DNA of 64,000 bases, from positions 5,796-69,795 of the forward strand of contig JAGWAR010000003.1 in the NCBI GenBank assembly GCA_021296325.1, read 5' to 3'. The translations under genes were made by a program, and so were the position numbers. Below are positions 540 to 51,860 of this stretch, in pieces (position 1 is the stretch's first letter; every line of letters begins with the position of its first letter). The notes under the pieces are model-generated. The model saw nothing but the letters and a program-made list of their open reading frames with translations. It searched no databases and was not told the DNA's origin. Source of the DNA: Alphaproteobacteria bacterium. Its GTDB lineage: Bacteria > Pseudomonadota > Alphaproteobacteria > GCA-2746255.

Positions 540-864
540 TGCAGACTCCGTCTGTGTGAGTGGGTTTTCCCGTTCACGGGAGAGCCCGGCCCGGCAAGGT
601 GCCCGGGTTCTCCCGCCTTTTCGTTCGGTCGCGGCGAAGGTCGTTCGGCCGGAACCATCGACGATGGGTCTGCTGCCCCCGATGAGTCGTGGCAAAGCGA
701 GAGCGGCCCGCCGAATCCGGCGGTCTCTCTCAATCGAAAGATGTAAGGGTCGTGAAAAATACATTCGCACCGGATTCCCGTTGCCGACAACATCCTTCAA
801 ACGAAGCCATGTCACCGTCTACGGAAATCCGCACCCGTCGGGGTAACCCCGCCCAACGGCTGGT

Positions 865-1040
865 GACACTCGACGGTAGGTCTCCTGGCTTGCGGATATA
901 GGCTTTAGCGCGTCCTGCCTTCCCAGTTTCCCAGTGGCTTTTATGGACGCAGCCTCCGCTCACAGTTGCGGGGGCAGCCACGGCATTGGCCGGTTATGGC
1001 CTCACCGTGTTCCCTTGTTATCCCCGAAAACGGGGAACCG
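865..1040 (-). promoter_or_regulatory. Cobalamin (AdoCbl) riboswitch in the 5' leader of the TonB-dependent receptor
   Basis: Minus-strand reads AAGGGAACACGGTGAGGCC...CTGCCCCCGCAACTGTGAGCGG...AGCCACTGGGAA..GGGAAGGC...AGCCAGGAGACCTACC. These are the conserved GGGAA/GGUG, CUGCCCCCGCAACUGU, GCCACUG and B12-box (AGCCAGGAGACCUGCC-like) elements of RF00174. Confidence 0.7.
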
Positions 1041-1087
1041 TCGAAAAGGAGCTTAGCGAATTTCCCGGCACTTCTCAACCAAAGACA

Positions 1088-1889: not shown

Positions 1890-2099
1890 ATGACCGAAAC
1901 CGCATCCACCATCACCTGCCCGGAATGCGGGCACACAAAGACCGAGGCGATGCCGACGGAGGCTTGCGTCTATTTCTACGAATGCGGAACCTGCGGCGCG
2001 CTTCTGAAGCCAAGGAAGGGGGATTGTTGCGTCTTTTGTTCCTATGGGTCCGTCCCCTGCCCGCCCGTCCAGGAAGCCCGGGCCGGGCGGGAGACCTAG
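1890..2099 (+). CDS. GDCCVxC-domain small cysteine-rich protein (69 aa from ATG 1890; track ORF starts at an upstream GTG, 1863)
   Basis: MTETASTITCPECGH...CVYFYECGTCGALLKPRKGDCCVFCSYGSVPCP has ten Cys including the GDCCVFC signature of the GDCCVxC (seleno)protein family. An SD-like AAGGG lies 8 nt upstream of ATG 1890. Confidence 0.65.
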   Translation: MTETASTITCPECGHTKTEAMPTEACVYFYECGTCGALLKPRKGDCCVFCSYGSVPCPPVQEARAGRET

Positions 2100-2312
2100 G
2101 CGCCAAGGACGGCGAGCGCCGGTTTGGGGTGCCTTTAGCTCTTTCTTAAGGCGCATACGGTAGTAACTGCAGACGGAGAAGTGGGCCATTTGAAGGGGAC
2201 ACTCGACCGTGCATACGCCGATGAAAAGCGAGAAGGCATTCCTCTGCACGCCCGCGGCCAAGAGGCCGTCGGCGAGAAGGATGGGCTGCGCCCATCCTTC
2301 GGGGGGTGCCCG

Positions 2313-3632
2313 GTGACTCCCTACGAAATCCTGCAACTTCTTCGCAAGCATGAGAAATGGCTTGCCGGCAAGGCCGATGGCGAGCGCGCGGATCTGAGCC
2401 AGGCCGATCTGTCGGGCCTGGACCTTTCCAAGGCGGATCTGCGGAAGGCGCGCATGAATGGCGCCGTTCTCAAAAACTGCAACCTGACCGGCGCCAATCT
2501 GGAAGGCGCCAGCCTCTACGCGGCGAATCTGTCCGACTGCATCCTGAGAAAGGCGAACCTCACGAAGGCCGATTTACATGGCGTCGATCTCAAGAAAGCC
2601 GACTTGACCGAGGCCAATCTGGAAGGCGCCGACCTGCGGGAGGGCCGGATGTTCGACATGAGCTAGGGGGACGGCTGGAAAGCCGTCGGCAGCAACCTCG
2701 GGCAATCCGTCCTGAACGGCGCTATTTTGAAAAACGTCAACCTCACCCGCGCTAACATGAAAAAGGTGTCCGCCCTGGATGCCGACATGTCGGGCGCGAC
2801 GCTGGTGGGCGTCAAACTTCAGGAATCGGATCTGAAAGGCGCCAATCTAAGCAATTCAAACCTTGCAGGCGCCAATCTCGGGAATACGGACCTGTCCAAC
2901 TGCAATTTCGACGCGGCCAATCTCACCCGTGCCAACGTGGCAGGCGCAAACCTTGCCAACGCCAATCTGGAAACGGCGAACCTGATGGACGTGGAGATGG
3001 CGCTTTCCCATGTGAAGAACGCCAAGCTTCCGCGCACGCCCCCGAAGGGCAAGCGGCCGATCCAGGTTGTGCTGGAGGACCATTTGCGCTGGATCGAAAC
3101 CCGGGGCAAGGAAGGCGAACGGGCCAATTGCGACGGCTACGACCTTACCAATCTGGACCTTTCCGGCATCGACCTCAGCGGCGCCAGCATGAAAGGGGCC
3201 GACCTGTCTCGCGCCGATCTTCACGGCTGCACGTTCGAGCTTTCCGACCTGTCCCGCGCCACGCTTCAGAACACGAATCTGGAAGGCGTGAACATGGCCG
3301 GGACAAACCTGACGGAGGCCGACCTGACCGGCGCCAATTTTCATGGGGCGCGGCTTGTCTCGGTCGAGCTTCGCGACCAGGCGGGGCGCTCCACGGGACG
3401 AATGTGGCCCACCAATTTGAGCCGGGCGGCCCTGCTGGGCGCCTGCCTCGCGGAATCGGACCTGACGGGGGCCAACCTGCGCGGGGCCGATCTGCGCGGG
3501 GCCGATCTGCGCGGGGCCAACATGGCCGGGGCGGCCGTGGAAGGCGCCAATCTGGAGGGCGTGCAGTTCAAGGGCGTCATCGCCTTCGACGGCGTGATCG
3601 AGGACGTCGCAAAGCAAAAGCGGGCGGGTTAA
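2313..3632 (+). pseudogene. Pentapeptide-repeat protein paralogue 1 (PRP1), interrupted by an in-frame TAG at 2664-2666; otherwise a 439-codon frame
   Basis: Track ORFs 2181..2666 and 2727..3632 are in the same frame, separated only by one amber codon (..LREGRMFDMS*GDGWKAVGSNLGQS..). The start is placed at GTG 2313 by homology: (M)TPYEILQLLRKHEKWLAGK aligns with MSPKDIIRLLRKHERWLQGK (PRP2) and MSPHEIIRLLRKHEQWLQGK (PRP3). The body is A(D/N)LxG-type pentapeptide repeats. Confidence 0.7.
3477..3521 (+). repeat. Three tandem 15-bp units (ctgcgcggggccgat x2, ctgcgcggggccaac) inside PRP1 encoding (L)RGAD repeats
   Basis: Read directly: ..ctgcgcggggccgatctgcgcggggccgatctgcgcggggccaac.. translated GANLRGADLRGADLRGANMAG. 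Confidence 0.8.
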
Positions 3633-3643
3633 CCCTGATAGAC

Positions 3644-3660
3644 CCCGTCGGACGGCGCGT
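3644..3660 (+). terminator. Putative rho-independent terminator after PRP1
   Basis: CGGACG-gcg-CGTCCG hairpin followed by atttccataaaattttt (T-rich). Confidence 0.45.
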
Positions 3661-3920
3661 CCGATTTCCATAAAATTTTTCGAAAATTTGATTCCCTCTT
3701 GCCAGGGAACGGCGTCGATTGGCCGTTTCGCTGAACTATTTCGTTAAAGCAAAAAATTTTATCTAAATTCAAAACAAATTCTAACCAAATCCGAATCGAA
3801 AATTATTGAAAGCTTTATTCGATTTAAGGTTTCTTCTCGTTAAGTGAGAAGGAGTGGGCACGAGGCAAACACGGTTTCCTTTCTGTTAAGCGAATTAGGA
3901 AGATCGCTTTTTTCGAAGGT
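3661..3920 (+). promoter_or_regulatory. AT-rich (~40% GC) 260-bp spacer between PRP1 and PRP2: probable regulated promoter or curved-DNA region
   Basis: Strong compositional contrast with the 64% GC flanks. It contains A-tracts (aaagcaaaaaattttatctaaattcaaaacaaattctaacc), direct repeats ttcgaaaat / atcgaaaatt and tctcgttaagtga / tctgttaagcga. The only ORFs are short overlapping ones with no support. Confidence 0.4.
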
Positions 3921-3941
3921 ATGGAACCAAGTAGGTGTGAC

Positions 3942-5205
3942 ATGTCTCCAAAGGACATCATACGGCTGCTGCGAAAGCACGAAAGGTGGCTACAAGGCAA
4001 GGTCGGCGGCGTACAGGCCAACCTTTCGAACATGAACCTAACCGGGTTGGATTTTTCCTATTCCAACCTGAGTCAGGCCGAGCTTAACAGCACCAACCTC
4101 AAGCGCAGCAATTTGAACGGCGCCAACCTTTCGGGTGCGCATCTGCCGGCGGCCGACCTTTCGCTCGCCAATCTGATTCACGCGGACTTCACCGGCGCAC
4201 ACATGCAAGGCGTCAACCTGCACAAGGCCGTTCTCAAGCGCGCCAAGCTTGAGCTTGCGGATTTGCGGGAAGGCCGCGTTGCCGCCTGGAGCGAATCCGG
4301 CGACTGGAAAGCCATGTCCATCGCGGCCGATCTCAGCAACGCCGTCTTCGACGAGGGCGAACTGACCGATGCCAATTTGAGCGGCGCTGATATGCGCGGA
4401 AGTTCAGGCAAGGACGCCAACCTCTCCGGCACCATCCTTACCGGTGCAAAACTGGACAACGCCGATTGGAAAAAGGCGAACCTGACCCAGGCCAACCTTA
4501 CGGACGCAAGGCTTGTGGAAGCGAATTTCGCCGGCAGCAATTTCAACGCGGCGACCCTTGTCCGGGCCGACGTTCACGGAACCGATTTTTCGAACGCCAT
4601 CCTCGATACCGCCAATCTCGAGGATGCGCCGATCGAATTCGCAAAACTGCAAGGCGCAAAGCTTCCGGCGTCATTCAAGAAGCGGGCCAAGCCGCTGCAG
4701 AACGTCCTCAGGGATCATCAGCGCTGGATCGAAACCCGGGGAAGAACCGGCGAACGGGCCATGCTGGACGGCTATGATCTGAGCGGCCAGAACCTGTCCG
4801 GCATCGATATGAGCGGCGCCAGCCTCCGCGGGGCGGACCTTTCCGAGGAGGATCTAAGCACCGGCACCTTCGAATTAACAGACTATTCTTACGAATATGG
4901 AAGGCGCGCGGCTTGCCGGCGCCAATCTTCTGGAGGCCAATTTAAGCGGGGCAAACCTTCACAACGCCCAGCTGATTTCGATCGAGCTTCGGGATTCCAT
5001 CGGCAAGCGTACGGGACGGATGTGGCCGTCCAACCTTACGCGCGCAACGCTGATCAATACCCGGCTGGCAGGCGCCAATCTTACAGAAGCCAACCTGACC
5101 GATGCCAATATGCACGGCGCAGATCTTGACGGCGTGACTTTTGCCGGAGCGGGCATCCGCGTGGCTCCGGCAGAGCCGGAAGGCTACGGAAATTCGGCCT
5201 CGTGA
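3942..5205 (+). pseudogene. Pentapeptide-repeat protein paralogue 2 (PRP2), frameshifted near 4875-4895 by a ~17-nt deletion relative to PRP1 and PRP3
   Basis: N-terminus MSPKDIIRLLRKHERWLQGK from ATG 3942. In-frame translation degenerates into Arg/Gln-rich nonsense after ..FELTDYSYEY. The +1 frame (track ORF 4897..5205) resumes the paralogous sequence NMEGARLAGANL...VELRDSIGKRTGRMWPSNLTRATL. Nucleotide alignment with PRP1 and PRP3 shows 40 nt here where they have 57 nt. Confidence 0.65.
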
Positions 5206-5250
5206 ACACGAAACCCATGAACAACCATCAAGCCTACAATTAGGTGAAAC

Positions 5251-6546
5251 GTGTCCCCTCATGAAATCATACGGTTGCTTCGGAAGCACGAGCAGTGGCT
5301 GCAAGGCAAGCCCGAGGGTGCGCAGGCGGATTTTTCCAAGCTGGATCTTTCCGGCCTGGACCTTTCCAGCGCGAATTTGAGCCGGGCAAACCTGAATGGC
5401 GTGTCCCTGAAAAACTGCAACCTGACCGGCGCCAACCTTGAGAACGCCAATTTGTACGCGGCCGAATTTTCCTATTCGACGCTTGCGCATGCGAATCTCA
5501 AGGGCGCCGACCTGCATGGCGTAAATTTCTACAAGGCCGACCTTAGCGGAGCCAGCCTTGAAAAGGCCGATCTGCGGGAGGGCCGCCTCGCCGTCATGAC
5601 GGGCAAGGGCACCTGGCAGGTCGTCGGCAGCAACCTTGGCCGCTCGATCCTGGACGAGGCCACGCTTCGGGGCGCCAACCTGACGCGTACCGACATGAAG
5701 GCCTGCTCGGCAGTTGGAGCCGATTTTTCCGGGGCGACGATGGTCGGCGCGCGCATGAAAAACGCCAATTGCGAAGGCGCTAACCTGAACCATGCCAACC
5801 TTTCGGGCGCCAATCTTGGAAATGCCAATCTGAAAGGCTGCAATTTCAGTGGCGCCACGCTGGTCCAGACCCACGTGACGGGCGCCGATTTCTCAAACGC
5901 GAATCTTGAAACCGCCAATCTGGTGGACGTGCCGCTGACGCTTGCAAAAGTGACCAAGGCGCGCCTGCCGGCCACGCCGTCGGAGCGGAAAAAGACGATC
6001 GAGGCCATCCTCGAGAGCCACATGAAGTGGGTGAAAAGCCGGGGCAGCATGGGCGAACAGGCCATCCTGGACGGCTATGACCTGAGCTGGCTCAACCTCG
6101 CCGGCGTGGACTTGAGCGGCGCCAGCCTGAAAGGCGCCAATCTTTCGGAAACCGACCTGCATGGCGGGATTTTCGAACTGGCCGATTTTTCCGGGGCTGC
6201 CCTTCAGGGCACGAATCTGGAAGACGCCGTCCTGTCCGGCGCCAGCCTTTCGGAAGCGGACCTGAGCGGCGCCAATTTGCGCCGGGCTCATCTGCATCCG
6301 GTGGAATTGCGGGATCAAAACGGCATCTCGACCGGGCGCACCTGGCCCACCAACCTCTCGCGGGCGGCCCTTCTGGAAGCCAATTTGAGCGGCGCCGACC
6401 TCACATCGGCGAATCTGACCCATGCCGATTTACGCGGCGCGGACCTGCGCGATGCCAGTCTGAAGCAGGCGATCGTCGAAGGCGTGAACATGGAAGAAGC
6501 CTATTTCGGCGAAGATGGAAAGAGGGCCGCCGCCGCGGCGTCCTGA
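5251..6546 (+). CDS. Pentapeptide-repeat protein paralogue 3 (PRP3), 431 aa, apparently intact
   Basis: MSPHEIIRLLRKHEQWLQGKPEGAQADFS.. followed by three blocks of A(D/N)LxG pentapeptide repeats. Non-repeat segments ..IEAILESHMKWVKSRGSMGEQAILDGYDLS.. and ..VELRDQNGISTGRTWPTNLSRAALL.. are shared with PRP1 and PRP2. Confidence 0.8.
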   Translation: MSPHEIIRLLRKHEQWLQGKPEGAQADFSKLDLSGLDLSSANLSRANLNGVSLKNCNLTGANLENANLYAAEFSYSTLAHANLKGADLHGVNFYKADLSGASLEKADLREGRLAVMTGKGTWQVVGSNLGRSILDEATLRGANLTRTDMKACSAVGADFSGATMVGARMKNANCEGANLNHANLSGANLGNANLKGCNFSGATLVQTHVTGADFSNANLETANLVDVPLTLAKVTKARLPATPSERKKTIEAILESHMKWVKSRGSMGEQAILDGYDLSWLNLAGVDLSGASLKGANLSETDLHGGIFELADFSGAALQGTNLEDAVLSGASLSEADLSGANLRRAHLHPVELRDQNGISTGRTWPTNLSRAALLEANLSGADLTSANLTHADLRGADLRDASLKQAIVEGVNMEEAYFGEDGKRAAAAAS

Positions 6547-6571
6547 CCACCATCCCCCCTGTGCCCTGACC

Positions 6572-6596
6572 CGGCCGGCGAACACGGAACGCCGGC
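6572..6596 (+). terminator. Putative rho-independent terminator after PRP3
   Basis: GCCGGCG-aacacggaa-CGCCGGC hairpin followed by ttgtat. Confidence 0.4.
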
Positions 6597-6653
6597 TTGT
6601 ATCCCGGCGAAAAGCCGTTCACGCTTCGTGGATGCCTTTCCGGGAGAGCCTTC

Positions 6654-7400
6654 ATGCGCATAAGCCCCCTGCCCTGGCTTGAGCCGGTGATCGCCCACCG
6701 CGGCGCAAGCGGGGTGGCGCCGGAGAACACCCTGGCCGCGATCCGCCGGGCGGGCGAGCTTGGCGCCCGCTGGGTGGAGGTCGACCTTCGCCGGACCGCG
6801 TCGGGGCCTTTCGTGCTCATGCACGACGCCACCCTCGATCGCACGACGAACGGCACGGGCCTGGTTTCGGAAACGCCTTGCGAGGCGATCGCCGGGTTGG
6901 ACGCCGGCGGCTGGTTCGGGTCGGACTTCGCGGGCGAGCCGGTACCGACACTGAATGCCTTTATGGCGCTTTGCGGCGAGCTTGGGCTGGTAGCCAATAT
7001 CGAGATCAAGGCGGAAGCCGACGCGGACGCGGTTGGTTATGCCGCCGCCAAGGCCCTGCTTGAAGGCTGGCCGGGAACGCTGCCGCCGCCGCTGATCTCA
7101 AGCGATTCGCCCACCCTGTTGCGCGCCGTCGCGAAAATAGCGCCCGATTTTCCCCGTGGCCTCATCGTAACCCAGGTGCCAAGCGAAGCCGTGCTCAACG
7201 AACGCGCCTGGGGATGCGTTTCCGTGCACGCCAGCGATACGTTTCTTACGCGGGCCAAGACCGCGTTGCTGGTCGCCAGTGGCTACGCCGTGCTGGTGTA
7301 CACGGTCAACACGCCGGCGCGCGCCCGAACGCTTTTCGGCTGGGGGGTCGATGCCATCTTCACGGACCACCCGGAGCCGGCGCGCTGGCAGAACGGCTAG
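6654..7400 (+). CDS. Glycerophosphodiester phosphodiesterase (GDPD family)
   Basis: MRISPLPWLEPVIAHRGASGVAPENTLAAIRRAGELGARWVEVDLRRTASGPFVLMHDATLDRTTNG carries the HRG..ENT and E.D motifs of GDPD. RBS GGGAGAG precedes ATG 6654. Confidence 0.8.
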   Translation: MRISPLPWLEPVIAHRGASGVAPENTLAAIRRAGELGARWVEVDLRRTASGPFVLMHDATLDRTTNGTGLVSETPCEAIAGLDAGGWFGSDFAGEPVPTLNAFMALCGELGLVANIEIKAEADADAVGYAAAKALLEGWPGTLPPPLISSDSPTLLRAVAKIAPDFPRGLIVTQVPSEAVLNERAWGCVSVHASDTFLTRAKTALLVASGYAVLVYTVNTPARARTLFGWGVDAIFTDHPEPARWQNG

Positions 7401-7711
7401 CGGCCGGCTTCGAGCAAAAACCCGATGGCAAGCAGCGTCAACAACCGCCGCGTGCGGGCATCGATTTCCTTCTGTGTCCCATCCCCGGACGCCGCACCCG
7501 CATCCGACGTCTCTCGCCGCGCCCGCAAGGGTGGCCGCGTATCGGCGGGTGGCGCCATCGCGGTTAGAGCCGGCGGTTCGACGGCGGCTTCGCGTGCCAG
7601 CGTGAAACGGGGATGCTCCAGGGTTACCAGAGCGACACCGGTAAGCCCCAGCAAGAAGGCGCCGAGCGCATGGATGCCGATCTTCCGACCAGGAAATCGC
7701 ATCGTCATCAT
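7397..7711 (-). CDS. Possible small two-helix membrane protein (104 aa)
   Basis: Two hydrophobic segments (IHALGAFLLGLTGVALVTL; LLTLLAIGFLL). It is convergent with the GDPD gene, overlapping by 4 nt. There is no homology evidence. Confidence 0.3.
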   Translation of the reverse strand: MMTMRFPGRKIGIHALGAFLLGLTGVALVTLEHPRFTLAREAAVEPPALTAMAPPADTRPPLRARRETSDAGAASGDGTQKEIDARTRRLLTLLAIGFLLEAGR

Positions 7712-7884
7712 CTGCCTCCTTTGATTCCCGGAGTGCAGGGTAGCGCGACCGCCCTAAGGAAAAATTAAGTAATACATTGATTTTATTGATTATTATCGTC
7801 TTTTGCAGAAAAGATGCGCGACGTATTTAGCAGGTTTGCCGTGCAAATTCGCGGCGAATGCGCCGAAGCCAGCGTTTCCGCCCA

Positions 7885-9342
7885 TCACGCCCCCTGCCCG
7901 AATGGTCCGAACATGGATTCGGCAGGACCGGCCGTGACCGGCCGGCCGGAAAGGTGGCGGTTGATCCAGGCCGGCAGTTTCGGCGCCGGCATTGGATGGC
8001 CGATGCCATAGCCCTGGGCCAGATCGCAGCCAAGCTCGGTCAGAAAATCCCGGGCGGGCCCGGATTCGATTCCCTCGGCAACGACCGTGACCCCGAGTCG
8101 CTCGGCCAGGTAAATCAGGGACTGCACGATCGCCACGTCGCTCATGTTCGTCGTGATGTTGGCGATGAAGGACGGGTCGATCTTGATTTCGTGGATGGGC
8201 AGTTTTTTCAGATAGGCAAAGGAGGAGAACCCCGTCCCGAAATCGTCAACCGAGATCCGAATTCCCATGGAATGAAAGCGATTTAGAATCTCCAGAATGT
8301 GATCGAGGTTCAGCATTAACGCGCTTTCGGTGATTTCCAGCACGAGAAGTTCGGTCGAGATCTGCCAGTGCTCCAGCAGGCCGATCACCCGTTCGGGCAA
8401 TTCGAGATCGTGCAGGGCGCGCGGAGAAACGTTGATCGCGACCGGCAGGGATAGCCCCTGCCGGCTCCAGACGCCTACCTGTTCAAGCCCCATGCTGATC
8501 GTGGCCTCCGTCAGGGTCTTGATCACGGCGGTGCGTTCCGCGGCGGGAATGAAGTCGCCGGGAGGCACCAGCCCATGCACCGGGTGATGCCAGCGCACCA
8601 GCGCCTCGACACCGACCAGGTGGCCCGTCTTCAGGGAAATTTTCGGCTGGTATTCGAGCTTCAGCTGGTCCCGTTCGAGGGCTTCCCGCAGCTCGCTGGC
8701 ATAGAGGAAACGGCGGTGCATCTGGTCGTCGCGGGCTAGGTTGTACAGGGCATAGCCGCTGTTCAGGCGCTTGGCTTCGTACATCGCCTGATCGGCATGA
8801 CGGAACAGCGTCGAGGAATCGGCGCCATGCTCCGGAAAGAGCGCAATACCGATGCTGATGCCGACGTCGACGAAACTCCCATCCAGCGCGATCGGCACCT
8901 CCACCGTATGGGCGATCTTTTCGGCCAGGGCGAAGGTGCCCTCCAAGGACGCGGTGGTGGGCAGAATGGCCATGAACTCGTCCCCGCCGAGACGGGCAAG
9001 GGTGTCCGATTCACGGCACGTCCCGACCAGCCGCTCGGCCACCTTCTTCAACACCTCGTCGCCCGCATCGTGGCCCAGCGTATCGTTGATTTCCTTGAAC
9101 CGGTCGAGGTCCATCATAAGCACGGCAAGGCGGGTGTTGTTCCGCCGCGAAAGCGCGATGGCGCGGTCGAGGCGGTCATGAAACAACGCCCGGTTGGAAA
9201 GGCCCGTCAGGGGATCGTAAAGGCTTAGCTGTTCCAGCTCTTCCTGGGTGCGGACGAGTTCGTTGGTAAGCTCGGTGACGCTCCGGTAGGTTTCGTCAAG
9301 CTCGGTTTCCAGGGCGGCAATGGTGGCCCTGGCGGCACGCAA
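7885..9342 (-). CDS. GGDEF-EAL protein (diguanylate cyclase/phosphodiesterase) with only a coiled-coil N-terminus and no sensor domain
   Basis: The RLGGDEF motif and EAL domain (..LKLEYQPKISLKTGHLVGVEALVRW..) are present. The track start 9405 overlaps the upstream gene by 58 nt; a TTG at 9342 lies immediately after the upstream stop (9347-9349). Confidence 0.8.
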   Translation of the reverse strand: MRAARATIAALETELDETYRSVTELTNELVRTQEELEQLSLYDPLTGLSNRALFHDRLDRAIALSRRNNTRLAVLMMDLDRFKEINDTLGHDAGDEVLKKVAERLVGTCRESDTLARLGGDEFMAILPTTASLEGTFALAEKIAHTVEVPIALDGSFVDVGISIGIALFPEHGADSSTLFRHADQAMYEAKRLNSGYALYNLARDDQMHRRFLYASELREALERDQLKLEYQPKISLKTGHLVGVEALVRWHHPVHGLVPPGDFIPAAERTAVIKTLTEATISMGLEQVGVWSRQGLSLPVAINVSPRALHDLELPERVIGLLEHWQISTELLVLEITESALMLNLDHILEILNRFHSMGIRISVDDFGTGFSSFAYLKKLPIHEIKIDPSFIANITTNMSDVAIVQSLIYLAERLGVTVVAEGIESGPARDFLTELGCDLAQGYGIGHPMPAPKLPAWINRHLSGRPVTAGPAESMFGPFGQGA

Positions 9343-9346
9343 CGCG

Positions 9347-9769
9347 TCATTTCCATTTGACGATTTCAACCCGGGTCCCCTTGCCAATGGTGGAAGTGAT
9401 CGCAAAATCGTCCATCAGACGCTTGACGCCGGGCAGACCCTGTCCGGGATTGCCGCCTGCCGGTACGCCGTCCTCGACGGCGCGGCGGGTATCCGAAATG
9501 CCGGGCCCCTGATCGATAAAGACGCAGCGTATGCCGATGGCGCTGCCGTTTTCGGCCAGATGCATCTCCATCCGCCCACCACCACCATGCAGCAAGGTGT
9601 TGCGCGCCAGCTCGCTGACCGAGGTTGCGATACGGGTCTTGTCGAGGGCCGAGAAACGCAGCTCTTCGGCGTATTGCCGGGCCGCCCGCCGGGTGCGGAT
9701 GATGTCTTCTTCGGAAGCGATGTCATACGCGTTCATGATCGCTTGCTCTTGGCAGTGCGCGATTTTCAT
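9347..9769 (-). CDS. RsbW/SpoIIAB-like anti-sigma regulatory factor (GHKL Ser/Thr kinase), 140 aa
   Basis: ..ATSVSELARNTLLHGGGGRMEMHL...IRCVFIDQGPGI.. shows N-box/G-box-like HATPase_c motifs. Size is typical of partner-switch kinases. Confidence 0.65.
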   Translation of the reverse strand: MKIAHCQEQAIMNAYDIASEEDIIRTRRAARQYAEELRFSALDKTRIATSVSELARNTLLHGGGGRMEMHLAENGSAIGIRCVFIDQGPGISDTRRAVEDGVPAGGNPGQGLPGVKRLMDDFAITSTIGKGTRVEIVKWK

Positions 9770-9983
9770 CCGACATTTTTTCGTTGCGTTGCGTTGCCGC
9801 TAAACTCTCACGGGCAGTCTTAAGAAACGATAAAATGCGCGGCGTGCGCACAGCGCGACGTTACACACAACGGTATGTGAATCATGTCGCGCGCGTGCAC
9901 GGGATCGCGTGCATAAGTGTGAAGAAGAAAAATCCCGGACGAAACCATCCAGGGCCACGACCGGAACGATCGATTGCGGGAAG

Positions 9984-10059
9984 TGGCGACCCCAACGGGA
10001 TTCGAACCCGTGTTGCCACCTTGAAAGAGTGGAGTCCTAGGCCTCTAGACGATGGGGTC
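9984..10059 (-). tRNA. tRNA-Glu (anticodon UUC)
   Basis: Minus strand GACCCCATCGTCTAGAGGCCTAGGACTCCACTCTTTCAAGGTGGCAACACGGGTTCGAATCCCGTTGGGGTCGCCA. Cloverleaf with 7-bp acceptor, TTCGAAT T-loop, anticodon loop CUUUCAA, encoded CCA. Confidence 0.9.
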
Positions 10060-10135
10060 GAGCCAAAGGCGGGCCACCGTGTCTAAACCGGGAAGCCCTT
10101 AAAATCAAGCCTCTCCGGGCTTTCCGGCTGCCCCG

Positions 10136-11929
10136 TCAGGCGTCGGGCCGGGCCAGGGCCGCGTCCTCGATGAAGAGCTGGACGTCGTCCCTTCCCTGCC
10201 AGCGATCGGCCCGGAGATGGCCGGCCAGATGGAGCGACGTGCCGCCCTTGTCGAGCAGGGCGCGGCCGAGTTCCGTCTCGGCGCATCGAAAGGCGATCCC
10301 CTTCATCCGCCCGCCCCCTTCCGCGTCCGTGATCATGCAACGGACGTGATCTTCGCCGACGATCTCGGAAAAGGCGACGCGGGCATTGGCGAAGGCGAAG
10401 CGGGGCTCGGCATTGCCGGGGCCGAAGGGGCTCAGGCGTTCGAGCAGGCGCACGAATTCCACCGTCGCTGCCGCCGGCGTCAACGCGCCGTCAAAGCCGA
10501 GCGAGGGTACGAAGCCGGCCTCTTCCAGGGCGGCGCCGATCCGCGCATCGAGAAAGGCCCGCAAGCCCTCGATACCGTCCGCCTCCACCGTAAAGCCGGC
10601 CGCCATCGCATGGCCGCCGCCGGTGCGGGCAAGTCCCGCCTGGCGGGCCGCCAGCACGGCGCTGCCCAGATCGACGCCGGGCACGGACCGGCCCGAGCCG
10701 GTCGCCATGTTGCCGTTGAGGGCGGCGACGAAGGCTGGCCGGTTGTAGCGTTCGCGAAGCCGACTGGCGACGATGCCGACGACGCCCGGATGCCAACCCT
10801 GGCCACAGGCAAAGGCGATGGCGCGGTCTTCGCCGGCGCCGTCGATTTGCTGGATCGCCTTATCAAGGACGGCCGCCTCGATCTCTTTGCGCTCGGCGTT
10901 CAGGGCGTCGAGATGGGCGGCGAGTTCCCTTGCTTCAAGCGCATCCTCCGTCGCCAGCAATTTCGCACCAATACCCGCCTCGCCGACCCGGCCGCCGGCG
11001 TTCACCCGCGGCCCCAGCAGAAAGCCCAGATGGTAGGCGCCGGGCCGCGTCTCGAGACGGGCCACGTCCATCAGGGCGGCGATGCCGGGATTGCCGCGCT
11101 GGGCCACGAGTTTAAGTCCCTGGGCCACGAAGGCGCGGTTGAGCCCCGTCAATTGCGCCACGTCGCAGACCGTGCCCAATGCCACGAGATCGAGCCAGGC
11201 AAGCAGGTCCGGCTCGGGACGCGTTTCGTACCAGCCCGCCTGGCGGAGCGCGCGGTTCATCGCGATGACCAGAAGATAGGTGACGCCGACGGCCGCCAGC
11301 ATGCGGTGCGGGCTTTCCTCGTCGAGGCGATTCGGGTTGATGACGGCGTGGGCAATGGGAAGTTTTGGTTCGCCGATATGGTGATCGACGACGATGACGT
11401 CGAGGCCGGCCTCCGCCGCCGCCGCGAGTGGCGAAAAGGCGGTCGCCCCGCAATCGACGGTGATGACGACCGAGACGCCCTCGCCTTTCAGGCGCAGCAG
11501 CGCCGCAGCGTTCGGCCCATAGCCTTCCTTCAGGCGGTCCGGAATGTAGACGCGAAGCGGGACGCCTGCCGCCCGGAAGAAGCGTTCGAGCAGCGCCGCG
11601 GACGTGGCCCCATCGACGTCGTAATCGCCGAAGACGGCAACCCGCTCGCCCTCGCGGATGGCCCGCACGAGTCGGGCCGTGGCCCGATCCATGTCCTTCA
11701 GATGGGAAGGATTGGGGAGCAGGCGTTTCAGGGTCGGCTCGAAGAAACTTTCCGCCTCGTCGGGGTGGACGCCGCGGGCGGCCAGCACCCGGCCCATGAT
11801 TTCCGGCAGGTTCAGGCGCTGGGCGAGAGTCATGCCAAGCCGTGCATCGGCCAGCCGCGCCCGCCAGCGTTTCCCCAGAAGGGAACGTTCCACGTCCAGA
11901 AAACTGTCGCCCGAAGGGGGCTTCACCAT
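10136..11929 (-). CDS. recJ: Single-stranded-DNA-specific exonuclease RecJ
   Basis: 597 aa; DHH/DHHA1 motifs (VFGDYDVDGATSAALL, ..DHH..). Confidence 0.85.
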   Translation of the reverse strand: MVKPPSGDSFLDVERSLLGKRWRARLADARLGMTLAQRLNLPEIMGRVLAARGVHPDEAESFFEPTLKRLLPNPSHLKDMDRATARLVRAIREGERVAVFGDYDVDGATSAALLERFFRAAGVPLRVYIPDRLKEGYGPNAAALLRLKGEGVSVVITVDCGATAFSPLAAAAEAGLDVIVVDHHIGEPKLPIAHAVINPNRLDEESPHRMLAAVGVTYLLVIAMNRALRQAGWYETRPEPDLLAWLDLVALGTVCDVAQLTGLNRAFVAQGLKLVAQRGNPGIAALMDVARLETRPGAYHLGFLLGPRVNAGGRVGEAGIGAKLLATEDALEARELAAHLDALNAERKEIEAAVLDKAIQQIDGAGEDRAIAFACGQGWHPGVVGIVASRLRERYNRPAFVAALNGNMATGSGRSVPGVDLGSAVLAARQAGLARTGGGHAMAAGFTVEADGIEGLRAFLDARIGAALEEAGFVPSLGFDGALTPAAATVEFVRLLERLSPFGPGNAEPRFAFANARVAFSEIVGEDHVRCMITDAEGGGRMKGIAFRCAETELGRALLDKGGTSLHLAGHLRADRWQGRDDVQLFIEDAALARPDA

Positions 11930-18842: not shown

Positions 18843-19370
18843 TTATTCTTTAAGCGCCGCCAGGTATTCCGCGCCCAGTTTCGCGTAATGGGCGTTCGTG
18901 TCGGGCAGAAAATCCGCCTCTTCCCTGGTCAGCTTGCGAACACAGCGCGCCGGATAGCCGGCCCATAGCTCGCCCGCCTTCACCCGCTTGCCCATTGTGA
19001 CCAAGGCACCGGCCGCCACCATTGCACCGCTTTCGACGACGACGCCATCCATCAGCTTCGCCCCCATGCCGATGAAGCTGCCGTCCTCCAGCGTGCAGGC
19101 GTGCAGCAGGGCCATATGCCCGATGGTGACGCCGGAGCCGATATAGGTGCCAAGGCCGTTCCGCGTTACGTGGATGACCGTATTGTCCTGGACGTTCGTC
19201 CTTTCACCGATGCGGATTTCGTTCACGTCGCCGCGAATCACGACACCGAACCAGATGCTGGAACGCGCCCCGATCTCGACATCGCCCACGACCGTCGCCG
19301 TGGGCGCGATGAAGGCATCCCCGGCAATCTTCGGCATGCGGTTTTTATAGGGCAGCATGAGTCCGGTCAT
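18843..19370 (-). CDS. Gamma-carbonic-anhydrase-family / hexapeptide-repeat protein
   Basis: Left-handed beta-helix hexapeptide repeats (IGARSSIWFGVVIRGDVNEIRIGERTNVQDNTVIH..). Confidence 0.75.
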   Translation of the reverse strand: MTGLMLPYKNRMPKIAGDAFIAPTATVVGDVEIGARSSIWFGVVIRGDVNEIRIGERTNVQDNTVIHVTRNGLGTYIGSGVTIGHMALLHACTLEDGSFIGMGAKLMDGVVVESGAMVAAGALVTMGKRVKAGELWAGYPARCVRKLTREEADFLPDTNAHYAKLGAEYLAALKE

Positions 19371-19391
19371 GGCCGATCGTTCCAGGCAGCG

Positions 19392-20465
19392 CTATGGGAA
19401 AAGGGGTTCCTGCTCGAGGCCAGTCGCTTCCGGAACACCCGAAACCAGATTGAAATTCTGCACGGCCTGGCCGGAAGCGCCCTTGACCAGATTGTCGAGG
19501 GCCGAGATCAGGATAGCCCGGTCCGGCCGGCGATCCGGGAAAACCCCGATCAAGCAGACATTGGACCCCCGCACGTGGTGCGTGGCGGGTGTCGTTCCGT
19601 CCGGAACCACCCGCACGAAACGCTCGTCCTTGTAGCGCGCTTGCAGCGCCGCCCGCAGATCGTCGGCGTCCGCGTTCGGGCCCAGCCGCACATAGACGGT
19701 CGAAAGGATGCCCCGGTTCATCGGCACGAGATGCGGCGTAAAGGAGACCGTCACCCGCTTTCCCGCCGCCCGGCTCAGGCCCTGCTCGATTTCGGGTACG
19801 TGCCGGTGCCGGCCGACCCCGTAGGCATGGATACCTTCCGCCACCTCGGCAAACAGGCTTTCCTCCTTGAGCGAGCGACCGGCGCCGGTGACACCGGATT
19901 TCGAATCGATGACGATATCGTCGGCCTCGACCAGACCCGCCTCCAGCAGCGGCATCAGGGGCAGCAGGGCCGACGTGGGATAGCAGCCCGGGCACGCAAT
20001 GAGCCTGGCGTTCGGGATGGCCTCGCGAGCAAGCTCGGTAAGCCCGTAGACGGCTTCCTTCTGCAGCGACTTGGCCCGGTGGGGATGCCCGTACCATTCC
20101 GCATAGGTTTCGGGATCCGCCAGCCGGAAGTCGGCGGAGAGGTCGAGAATTTTCAAATGCCCCGGCAACGCCGCCACCGTTTCCTGGGTCTCGCCATGGG
20201 GCAGACAGCAGAAAACGGTATCGATGCCGGAAAAGTCGACGTCCTCAACCCGCACCATGCGCGGCAGGCCGAGGCCGTCCAGATGCGGAAAGACGGTTGC
20301 GACCGACTCGCCGGCCCGGCGGTCGGCCGTCAAGGCAGCCAGCGTTGCGTTTGGATGCCGGACGAGGATGCGAAGCAGTTCGGCGCCCGTATAACCACTG
20401 GCGCCGAGAACGGCGATCCGCATTGCCTCTGCTTTTTTGCTCATGGCCTTCACTCCGGTTGCCAT
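19392..20465 (-). CDS. argC: N-acetyl-gamma-glutamyl-phosphate reductase
   Basis: RIAVLGASGYTGAELLRIL.. and the catalytic GCYPTSALL motif. The true start may be an internal Met (MSKK.. or MRIAVLG..). Confidence 0.85.
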   Translation of the reverse strand: MATGVKAMSKKAEAMRIAVLGASGYTGAELLRILVRHPNATLAALTADRRAGESVATVFPHLDGLGLPRMVRVEDVDFSGIDTVFCCLPHGETQETVAALPGHLKILDLSADFRLADPETYAEWYGHPHRAKSLQKEAVYGLTELAREAIPNARLIACPGCYPTSALLPLMPLLEAGLVEADDIVIDSKSGVTGAGRSLKEESLFAEVAEGIHAYGVGRHRHVPEIEQGLSRAAGKRVTVSFTPHLVPMNRGILSTVYVRLGPNADADDLRAALQARYKDERFVRVVPDGTTPATHHVRGSNVCLIGVFPDRRPDRAILISALDNLVKGASGQAVQNFNLVSGVPEATGLEQEPLFP

Positions 20466-20533: not shown

Positions 20534-20770
20534 CTATTTCCGGTTTTCCCTGATGTACCAGCCTATGAAAACCGGCACCGCAAGGGCCGCCAGAAAGACG
20601 CAGACCACAAGCGGAAGCACCCAAGGAATAAGCGGGGGGCAAACAATCTTTCCCATCGTCCACAAACAGAGCAAATCGTAGATGTAGCTGATCCTGGCCA
20701 GGGAATAGATGCCGAGAATCAAAATACCTATCCCCAGCAGGAAAAGCAGAATCTTGGAAGGATTGCTCAT
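20534..20770 (-). CDS. Possible small two-TM membrane protein (78 aa) in a local low-GC patch
   Basis: MSNPSKILLFLLGIGILILGIYSLARISYIYDLLCLWTMGKIVCPPLIPWVLPLVVCVFLAALAVPVFIGWYIRENRK. Two clear hydrophobic helices. The region 20470-20800 is about 50% GC against about 64% around it. Confidence 0.4.
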   Translation of the reverse strand: MSNPSKILLFLLGIGILILGIYSLARISYIYDLLCLWTMGKIVCPPLIPWVLPLVVCVFLAALAVPVFIGWYIRENRK

Positions 20771-33312: not shown

Positions 33313-33471
33313 CGTTTTCCCCTTGGGTCGTCGTTCTGGGCCGGGCCGATCGGCGCGGCGGAAACACTGCGGGTAGCCAAAAATCGCGCGGAAAATGACA
33401 GAATCAGAGGACCGGTGCAACCCACCTGTCTGCCCTTGACCTTAACCGGGCGAACCCCCACCATGTTCTCA

Positions 33472-35504
<2,033 letters not shown>

Positions 35505-39189: not shown

Positions 39190-39777
39190 CTATTCCTTCT
39201 CCATAAGGCGGGCGAGGTAGCGTGCAAGCAGGTCCACTTCTACGTTTACCCGCGTGCCTTCCTTCGCGTGGCCGAACGTCGTCATCTGGCGGGTATGCGG
39301 AATGATGTTGACGCCGAAGGCAGCACCTTCGGCCTCGTTCACCGTCAACGAAACCCCGTCCAGCGTAACCGAGCCCTTCGGCGCCAGGAAAGACCCCAAG
39401 GCGGCCGGTCCCCGGAACCGGAGCCGGAGGCTTTCCCCTTCCGGTTCCACTTTTTCCACGACGGCGATGCCGTCGACATGGCCGCTGACCAGATGGCCGC
39501 CAAGCTCATCGCCAAGGCACAAGGCGCGCTCCAGATTGACGGCGGTGCCTTTCTTCCAATCGCCAAGCGTTGTACGCGCCAGGGTCTCGGCCGAGGCCTG
39601 TACCGCGAACCAGTCCTTGTCCTTGTCGATCACGCTCAGGCAAACGCCGGCGCAGGCGATCGACGCTCCGATGGCGAGGCCGGAGAGGTCGAGCCCGGTT
39701 TCGATCTCGATCCGGGTGTCGCCGCCCGGTGCGATGGCGCGAACGCGCCCGATATCCGCAATGATGCCTGTGAACAT
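39190..39777 (-). CDS. ribE: Riboflavin synthase
   Basis: MFTGIIADIGRV.. with internal duplication (..GASIACAGVCLSV.. / ..GSVTLDGVSLTV..). Start at MFTGII; upstream in-frame extension ignored. Confidence 0.85.
   Translation of the reverse strand: MFTGIIADIGRVRAIAPGGDTRIEIETGLDLSGLAIGASIACAGVCLSVIDKDKDWFAVQASAETLARTTLGDWKKGTAVNLERALCLGDELGGHLVSGHVDGIAVVEKVEPEGESLRLRFRGPAALGSFLAPKGSVTLDGVSLTVNEAEGAAFGVNIIPHTRQMTTFGHAKEGTRVNVEVDLLARYLARLMEKE

Positions 39778-50825: not shown

Positions 50826-51860
<1,035 letters not shown>

Follow-up and report, generated by a model that had tools for sequence, protein, structure and literature searches.

We analysed a window of 64,000 nucleotides (nt) from the metagenome-assembled genome (MAG) 'Alphaproteobacteria bacterium' (GenBank assembly GCA_021296325.1, contig JAGWAR010000003.1, positions 5,796 to 69,795 of the forward strand); the proteins MCE2509863.1 and MCE2509867.1 of this MAG match window proteins exactly. 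The window contains three tandem genes for pentapeptide-repeat proteins (PRPs) that share 49–58% identity with one another, and the first of them, PRP1, is interrupted by a single in-frame amber codon, which is the subject of this study. For comparison we used OZ252220.1 (hereafter L001), the 2.1-Mb chromosome of an alphaproteobacterial MAG and the sole match of a scan of species-representative genomes, as well as further relatives (L007, L010/L011 and L012/L013) that were reached by searching with the neighbouring RecJ protein. The locus comprises the following features.

1890..2099, plus strand: small gene of the GDCCVxC-domain (seleno)protein family, directly 5' of PRP1, left synteny anchor (NF041374, E=8e-31; DNA conserved in L001)
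2313..2663, plus strand: N-terminal part of PRP1, 117 codons from a GTG start, predicted from the PRP3 AlphaFold (AF2) model to form an N-terminal helix and ~4.5 pentapeptide-repeat beta-helix coils
2664..2666, plus strand: in-frame amber TAG, codon 118 of PRP1, in the context AGC-TAG-GGG, at the predicted tip of the first beta-hairpin insertion
2667..3632, plus strand: C-terminal part of PRP1, 321 codons and a TAA, with the frame still open, covering the rest of module 1 and the whole of module 2
3942..5205, plus strand: PRP2, a pseudogene with a 17-nt deletion between 4891 and 4892; the first frame ends at 5129 and the shifted frame at 5205
5251..6546, plus strand: PRP3, intact paralogue of 431 amino acids (aa), the most conserved of the three copies (ratio of nonsynonymous to synonymous substitution rates, dN/dS, 0.123)
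6654..7400, plus strand: glycerophosphodiester phosphodiesterase (GDPD) gene, right synteny anchor (PF03009), an exact match to the MAG protein MCE2509863.1

PRP1 occupies 2313..3632 on the plus strand (439 codons) and reads ATG AGC TAG GGG GAC GGC TGG around the interruption. Translating 2181–3632 gives exactly one internal stop, and the open reading frames (ORFs) 2181..2666 and 2727..3632 lie in the same frame on either side of it, as a preliminary description of this DNA had stated. The gene itself almost certainly starts at GTG 2313 rather than at 2181, because this is where the alignment with the paralogue N-termini (MSP.EIIRLLRKHE) and with TTG 8001 of the L001 orthologue begins; the DNA 5' of 2313 is poorly conserved compared to L001 and contains insertions and deletions. 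Both sides of the stop match PF00805, the family of tandem A(D/N)LXX pentapeptides, far above its gathering cut-off of 20.2 bits (N-terminal part, 142.5 bits, E=2e-42; C-terminal part, 192.9 bits, E=4e-58), and both are thus members of the family. The alignment with the L001 orthologue spans the stop unbroken at 74% identity, and we therefore regard PRP1 as one gene cut by one codon rather than as a chance juxtaposition of two ORFs. The premature stop falls within a region homologous to intact full-length orthologues, as in a nonsense pseudogene.

Where the stop falls in the protein can be judged from PRP3, whose AF2 model has a mean predicted local distance difference test (pLDDT) score of 93.5, with 82 homologues used. 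The model shows two modules. In each, an alpha-helix (residues 3–17 and 250–262) precedes a pentapeptide beta-helix into which one beta-hairpin (residues 113–125 and 351–365) is inserted. Codon 118 of PRP1 aligns with the tip of the first hairpin, at which the residue is variable (Q, K, E or G). By homology to PRP3, to which it is 57–58% identical, PRP1 is predicted to fold as a beta-helix that is right-handed and quadrilateral. Foldseek matched the PRP3 model to HetL, MfpA, AlbG, Qnr and Np275/276 with probability 1.0, and the Protein Data Bank entries 2j8k and 2j8i (Np275/Np276) were among the fold matches. The window PRPs resemble Qnr, MfpA, AlbG and HetL in belonging to PF00805 and in having the same predicted quadrilateral beta-helix with loop insertions projecting from it, but they are twice as long (~430 aa) and consist of two helix-plus-beta-helix modules. 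PRP3 does not reach the NCBIfam equivalog cut-offs for Qnr (86.7 versus 240 bits) or MfpA (90.5 versus 360 bits), and the C-terminal part of PRP1 behaves similarly; the NCBIfam cut-off for HetL is not reached either (212 versus 260 bits). No specific function can therefore be transferred to the window PRPs.

An in-frame TAG with an open frame beyond it could reflect programmed recoding, in which the codon is read as an amino acid by way of pyrrolysine, a suppressor tRNA dedicated to it or reassignment across the genome. The only points in favour of such a system are the open frame beyond the TAG and the unusual frequency of TAG in the window. Against this, TAG serves as a terminator in the window, where 24 of ~60 genes predicted from codon usage end in it. 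Only two stops in the whole window turned out to have coding signal both before and after them: the site at 2664 and a same-frame TAG at 39190, which is the ordinary boundary between two separate genes, ribE and ribBA, as judged by Pfam. We found no tRNA with a CUA anticodon and no other suppressor tRNA in the window, whose only tRNAs are Glu-UUC and Pro-GGG, and the TAG is not conserved in the orthologues. Pyrrolysine systems are not known in Alphaproteobacteria. Recoding is effectively excluded within the window and, for PRP1, we would give it almost no credence; genome-wide reassignment of TAG, in particular, was rejected there on the terminal use of TAG, the lack of tRNA-CUA and the lack of any other in-frame TAG. 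As a separate observation, rough gene prediction gives a stop usage of 24 TAG, 23 TGA and 13 TAA, making TAG the most frequent stop; this share is high for a GC-rich alphaproteobacterium and compares with 19–31% TAG in the loci of the relatives.

PRP1 might also still work despite a genuine stop, either by low-level readthrough of UAG or with its two halves acting as a split protein like Np275/Np276. We consider this improbable. The 321 codons downstream of the stop are intact and under the same constraint as the upstream part, the stop is predicted to lie at the tip of a variable surface hairpin outside the beta-helix core, and the 117-residue N-terminal fragment, with its helix and ~4.5 coils, resembles Np275 in outline. 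However, the relatives do not share the split: in L001, L007 and L012 the protein is encoded undivided. None of the downstream in-frame starts (TTG 2727, ATG 2748 and GTG 2757) has a Shine-Dalgarno-like motif ahead of it; by contrast, (A/G)GGTG occurs within a few bases 5' of the start in all three PRP genes. The base following the stop is a G, which reportedly is not a known leaky context (Poole et al. 1995). RNA 3' of the stop folds no better than shuffled sequences (z = -1.16), and the small hairpin there is, by inspection, not complementary in L001; we rejected a readthrough-stimulating RNA structure on these two grounds. Programmed readthrough would thus have neither a conserved stop codon (CAA, CAA and AAA in the orthologues) nor a stimulatory structure at this site.

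The closest precedent for a working split comes from Nostoc punctiforme. Its neighbouring genes Np275 and Np276 both encode pentapeptide repeats, and the sequence that separates them continues the repeats in frame. Np275 (98 aa), which has a helical cap at its N-terminus and four coils, can fold by itself (PMC8145042). It has been proposed that a stop codon divided a single ancestral gene into this pair (Vetting et al. 2007, cited in PMC8145042). PRP1 is similar in that its repeat frame is interrupted by a stop with in-frame repeats beyond, and in that its N-terminal piece would have a helix cap and about four coils. In Nostoc, however, each piece is annotated as a gene and the second begins with a start codon, whereas the downstream part of PRP1 has no recognisable ribosome-binding site. 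The PRP1 stop also lies within a hairpin insertion and not between repeats as in Nostoc, and the relatives at ~74% identity are unsplit. With no Shine-Dalgarno-like motif ahead of the downstream starts and relatives encoding a single protein, PRP1 does not look like a split of the Np275/Np276 type. Apart from the PRP review PMC8145042, our literature search on PRP pseudogene paralogues and amber hotspots returned nothing directly relevant.

The preliminary description had proposed a comparison with sister strains as a check on the stop. The relatives that we could compare are as follows; RecJ percentages give the identity to the RecJ of the window.

L001 (OZ252220.1): intact PRP1 (442 aa) and PRP3 (432 aa), broken PRP2; CAA (Gln) at the TAG site
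L007: RecJ 86%; three PRP genes called (435, 426 and 432 aa); codon at the TAG site CAA (Gln); 98.1% nt identity to L001
L012/L013 (GCA_002746255.1): RecJ 76%; two PRP genes (437 and 429 aa); codon AAA (Lys) in the PRP1-like copy
L010/L011: RecJ 79%; no PRP genes; the GDPD gene directly adjoins a 69-aa gene

When this comparison was run, the stop was absent from L001, L007 and L012. Because all three have a sense codon at the site, the stop is specific to the window genome among the sampled genomes. The L001 and L012 orthologues are intact throughout, and L007 PRP1 is open across the TAG site in the part of the gene that was examined. Searches for nearer relatives yielded less. The closest RecJ relative (P0137, 89% identical) lies on a contig of 5.7 kb that falls short of the PRP locus, and a JGI metagenome scan for sister strains returned distant PRPs only. 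A protein search with full-length PRP1 brought up mostly generic repeat proteins, the best of its matches being 41% identical, and a short protein query centred on the PRP1 stop found nothing above 51% identity.

Several features of these relatives are worth recording in their own right. The 69-aa gene of L010 sits in a position equivalent to that of the window GDCCVxC gene and may be its orthologue. In L007 the stretch from RecJ to GDPD contains inserted genes, among them one for an IS1595-family transposase. The C-terminus of L007 PRP1 is frame-shifted at an A-run (20596–20700), and several conserved residues are changed compared to L001. L007 looks noisy and of low coverage (a sibling contig is named '6x'), and single-base differences in it need care.

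The number of PRP genes between the same flanks, which are GDPD on one side and a lipoprotein gene and a TonB-dependent receptor on the other, ranges from 0 to 3 (none in L010, 9202–10194; two in L012, 16709–21221; three in L007, 16909–21794). The preliminary description had reported a frameshift in the window PRP2, and the frame is indeed shifted; the lesion responsible is the 17-nt deletion between 4891 and 4892. L001 retains these 17 nt and has an ACG at either end of them (ACG...ACG), and the deletion would fit slippage at this microhomology. In L001, PRP2 (9628–10906) is broken differently, by the deletion of 1 nt, a TAA and a TAG. None of these lesions occurs in L007, where PRP2 is intact with 426 aa (19121–20401), and 3 of the 16 differences between L001 and L007 in PRP2 are disabling. 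PRP3, by comparison, is intact in every PRP-bearing relative (L001, L007 and L012).

It had been suggested from the PRP1 stop and the PRP2 frameshift that a single copy out of the three remains functional. This describes the window well, where PRP3 is the sole intact copy and has a dN/dS of 0.12, but it is not a rule of the lineage: all three copies are called as intact genes in L007, L001 retains PRP1 and PRP3, L012 has two copies and L010 has none. Given a copy number of 0–3 and the independent PRP2 lesions in L001 and the window, the PRP family plainly appears, from these genome comparisons, to be expendable in the clade and in ongoing strain-level turnover.

The region between PRP1 and PRP2 (window 3633–3941, L001 9330–9627) is strongly AT-rich in a genome of 62% GC and is conserved between the window and L001, with long identical blocks that include CGATTTCCATAAAA and AAAAATTTTATCTAAATT. 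A direct repeat, approximately TAAGGTTTnTTCnnGTTAnG, is present in two copies just 5' of PRP2. This stretch may have a regulatory role or encode a small RNA; a comparison with Rfam gave no match.

To estimate the age of the PRP1 lesion, we calculated dN/dS between the window and L001 with the Nei-Gojobori method. The value for whole PRP1 is 0.215, and it is nearly the same for the 117 codons upstream of the TAG (0.225) and the 315 codons downstream of it (0.211). PRP3 gave 0.123, frame-repaired PRP2 0.106 and the neighbouring lipoprotein gene 0.189. With the PRP1-like copy of L012 as outgroup, the window PRP1 has 40 unique amino-acid changes and that of L001 has 36 (29 and 25, respectively, downstream of the stop), and paralogue outgroups gave the same relative-rate result. 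We therefore see neither a rise in dN/dS nor a rate acceleration in the window copy, and PRP1 contains no second lesion. It follows that the stop is very recent compared to the divergence from L001 (PRP1 dS ~0.73), not real, or harmless.

The codons found at the site in homologues bear on how the TAG could have arisen. The preliminary description had placed GAG or AAG in the paralogues, from which one substitution would lead to TAG, but the actual codons are GAA in PRP2 and GGC in PRP3 (GGC/GGA), and the orthologues have CAA (L001 and L007) or AAA (L012). Since all of these are more than one step from TAG, an unobserved synonymous intermediate is needed, as in CAA>CAG>TAG or AAA>AAG>TAG. We considered gene conversion from PRP2 as a source of the TAG and found no support for it, as the loop codons, compared by eye, are shifted and not identical. 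Independently of this, the hairpin tip is a hotspot of divergence: 7 of the 12 nt in codons 118–121 differ between the window (2664–2675, TAG GGG GAC GGC) and L001 (8349–8360, CAA AAG GGT AGC), compared to a locus-wide divergence of ~23%.

CCAGG is a Dcm-type motif, a hotspot of C>T change and also a motif that is miscalled in long reads. In lacI, amber hotspots reportedly lie at the 5-methylcytosine of CCAGG (Coulondre et al. 1978). If the ancestral codon of PRP1 was CAG, the site AGC-CAG-G would hold this motif, and a change of its inner C to T would give the observed CTAGG. Unlike in lacI, the ancestral CAG would be deduced only, the relatives having CAA or AAA, and no search was made for a Dcm-type methylase. 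In the window, CCAGG has an observed/expected ratio of 0.72 and CTAGG one of 1.58 (12 observed versus 7.6 expected). These motif statistics are too weak to favour deamination of 5-methylcytosine or a miscall, and the idea was given no weight in our verdict.

Taken together, these observations suggest that the TAG is probably a real, recent, strain-level nonsense mutation in PRP1. This reading accounts for the location of the stop in a decaying family, for its absence from relatives and for the lack of further decay. Several points weigh against it. None of the sampled homologues has a codon one substitution away from TAG. A single lesion with no relaxation of constraint is equally expected of an error or of a gene that still functions. 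A MAG consensus may represent one allele of a mixed population. Look-ups of exact products were empty for the guessed N-terminal and C-terminal halves of PRP1 (two starts each); they were also empty for the 189-aa lipoprotein and the 69-aa GDCCVxC protein. A Logan contig from run SRR35761419 (L002) matches the window over 5004–7938 and does not cover position 2664. In addition, hemB (ALAD, ~50886..51860, plus strand) lacks a canonical start ahead of its conserved N-terminus. In its frame there is no ATG, GTG or TTG between TAA 50796 and GTG 50979, the ALAD Pfam domain begins at ~50886, and a start at GTG 50979 would remove ~33 conserved residues. Either hemB uses a non-canonical start (ATC 50814, CTG 50823, ATA 50826 or ATT 50856), or its start codon has undergone a base change or contains an error, so that the hemB start may be a second single-base oddity of the assembly.

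The main rival is an artefact of sequencing, assembly or consensus. In this case the true codon would be sense (for example CAG or AAG), and the T would come from a miscall or from a minority allele that became fixed in the MAG consensus. In favour of this, the genome is a MAG, the lesion is a single base with no accompanying decay, the hemB start codon is possibly a further single-base anomaly, and a true CAG would give CCAGG, with its known tendency to be miscalled and with the mild over-representation of CTAGG noted above. However, no other in-frame stop within coding regions and no other broken gene was found in the window scan, which covers ~55 kb of coding sequence. Gene-breaking errors are therefore rare in this assembly: with 3 per 55 kb as a rough upper bound for a count of zero, fewer than ~0.07 error-induced lesions would be expected in the 1.3 kb of PRP1. 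Among ~40 other ORFs compared with Pfam, every family match covers essentially the whole profile, except in hemB and in SpoT, whose listed ORFs have late starts. At normal assembly depth, substitution errors in the consensus are rare. The lesion in the adjacent PRP2 is a 17-nt deletion at microhomology, which is atypical of sequencing error, and both gene-breaking lesions lie within the 2.6 kb of PRP1 and PRP2, so relaxed selection fits better than randomly placed errors. Finally, the SRR35761419 contig is 100% identical to the window over 2,935 nt close by, so that the same strain is present in the Logan assembly of this public run, a run that may share source data with the MAG. We therefore regard an artefact as unlikely, though a more serious contender than continued function.

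The nascent pseudogene is accordingly favoured among the three options that had been put forward at the outset. Sequencing error comes second as a less likely alternative, whereas readthrough is unsupported because the stop is absent in orthologues, TAG is a heavily used terminator and no significant or conserved structure is present. If the nonsense mutation is real, codon 118 would have changed from a sense codon for Gln or Lys, as in the relatives, to TAG in the window genome. Release factor 1 would then terminate at codon 118 and a 117-residue N-terminal fragment would be released. The downstream 321 codons would probably no longer be usefully translated, since no Shine-Dalgarno-like motif precedes TTG 2727 or ATG 2748. 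The lesion would be part of the ongoing turnover of a dispensable tandem PRP family, of which PRP3 appears to be the copy most consistently retained.

Events of this sort are familiar. Bacterial pseudogene turnover is reportedly rapid (Kuo and Ochman 2010), and it usually shows itself in young lesions that are confined to single strains and affect genes with a long history of purifying selection. PRP1 resembles such pseudogenes in having a single disabling lesion, intact relatives and no relaxation of dN/dS, and its locus does so in having a paralogue with lineage-specific lesions and a family that has been lost outright in one relative. Nothing essential differs from the typical case; what is peculiar is that two of three tandem paralogues have been hit in one genome. 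The event is of an ordinary, already-known kind.

Elsewhere in the window, we noted two riboswitches. A cobalamin riboswitch (858–1057, minus strand, 118 bits) lies 5' of a TonB-dependent receptor gene that runs off the left end of the window, and a thiamine pyrophosphate (TPP) riboswitch (33469–33576, plus strand) with 55.4 bits, just above the gathering score, lies 5' of thiC (33615–35504).

It is tempting to speculate that the PRP lesions are recurrent selected knock-outs and not neutral decay. The reason to consider this is that the genes have been under long purifying selection (dN/dS 0.1–0.2 at dS ~0.7–1.1) and yet were knocked out separately, and very recently, in several strains: PRP1 and PRP2 in the window, PRP2 in L001, and the entire family by its absence in L010. 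If this were true, the PRPs could switch between being useful and being harmful, for instance by serving as target or decoy in a conflict. We nevertheless think it very unlikely that selection of this kind is at work here. In a weaker variant, the split PRP1 could still work as two pieces, by analogy with what has been proposed for Np275/Np276.

For annotation, PRP1 in this MAG should be recorded as a pseudogene, or as a base to verify, rather than as two genes, and the same applies to PRP2. Beyond annotation the PRP1 stop itself has little importance. PRP3 is the copy of choice for functional study, and the tandem PRP family as a whole, with 0–3 copies in close relatives and strain-level lesions, is a clear example of the turnover of dispensable paralogues.

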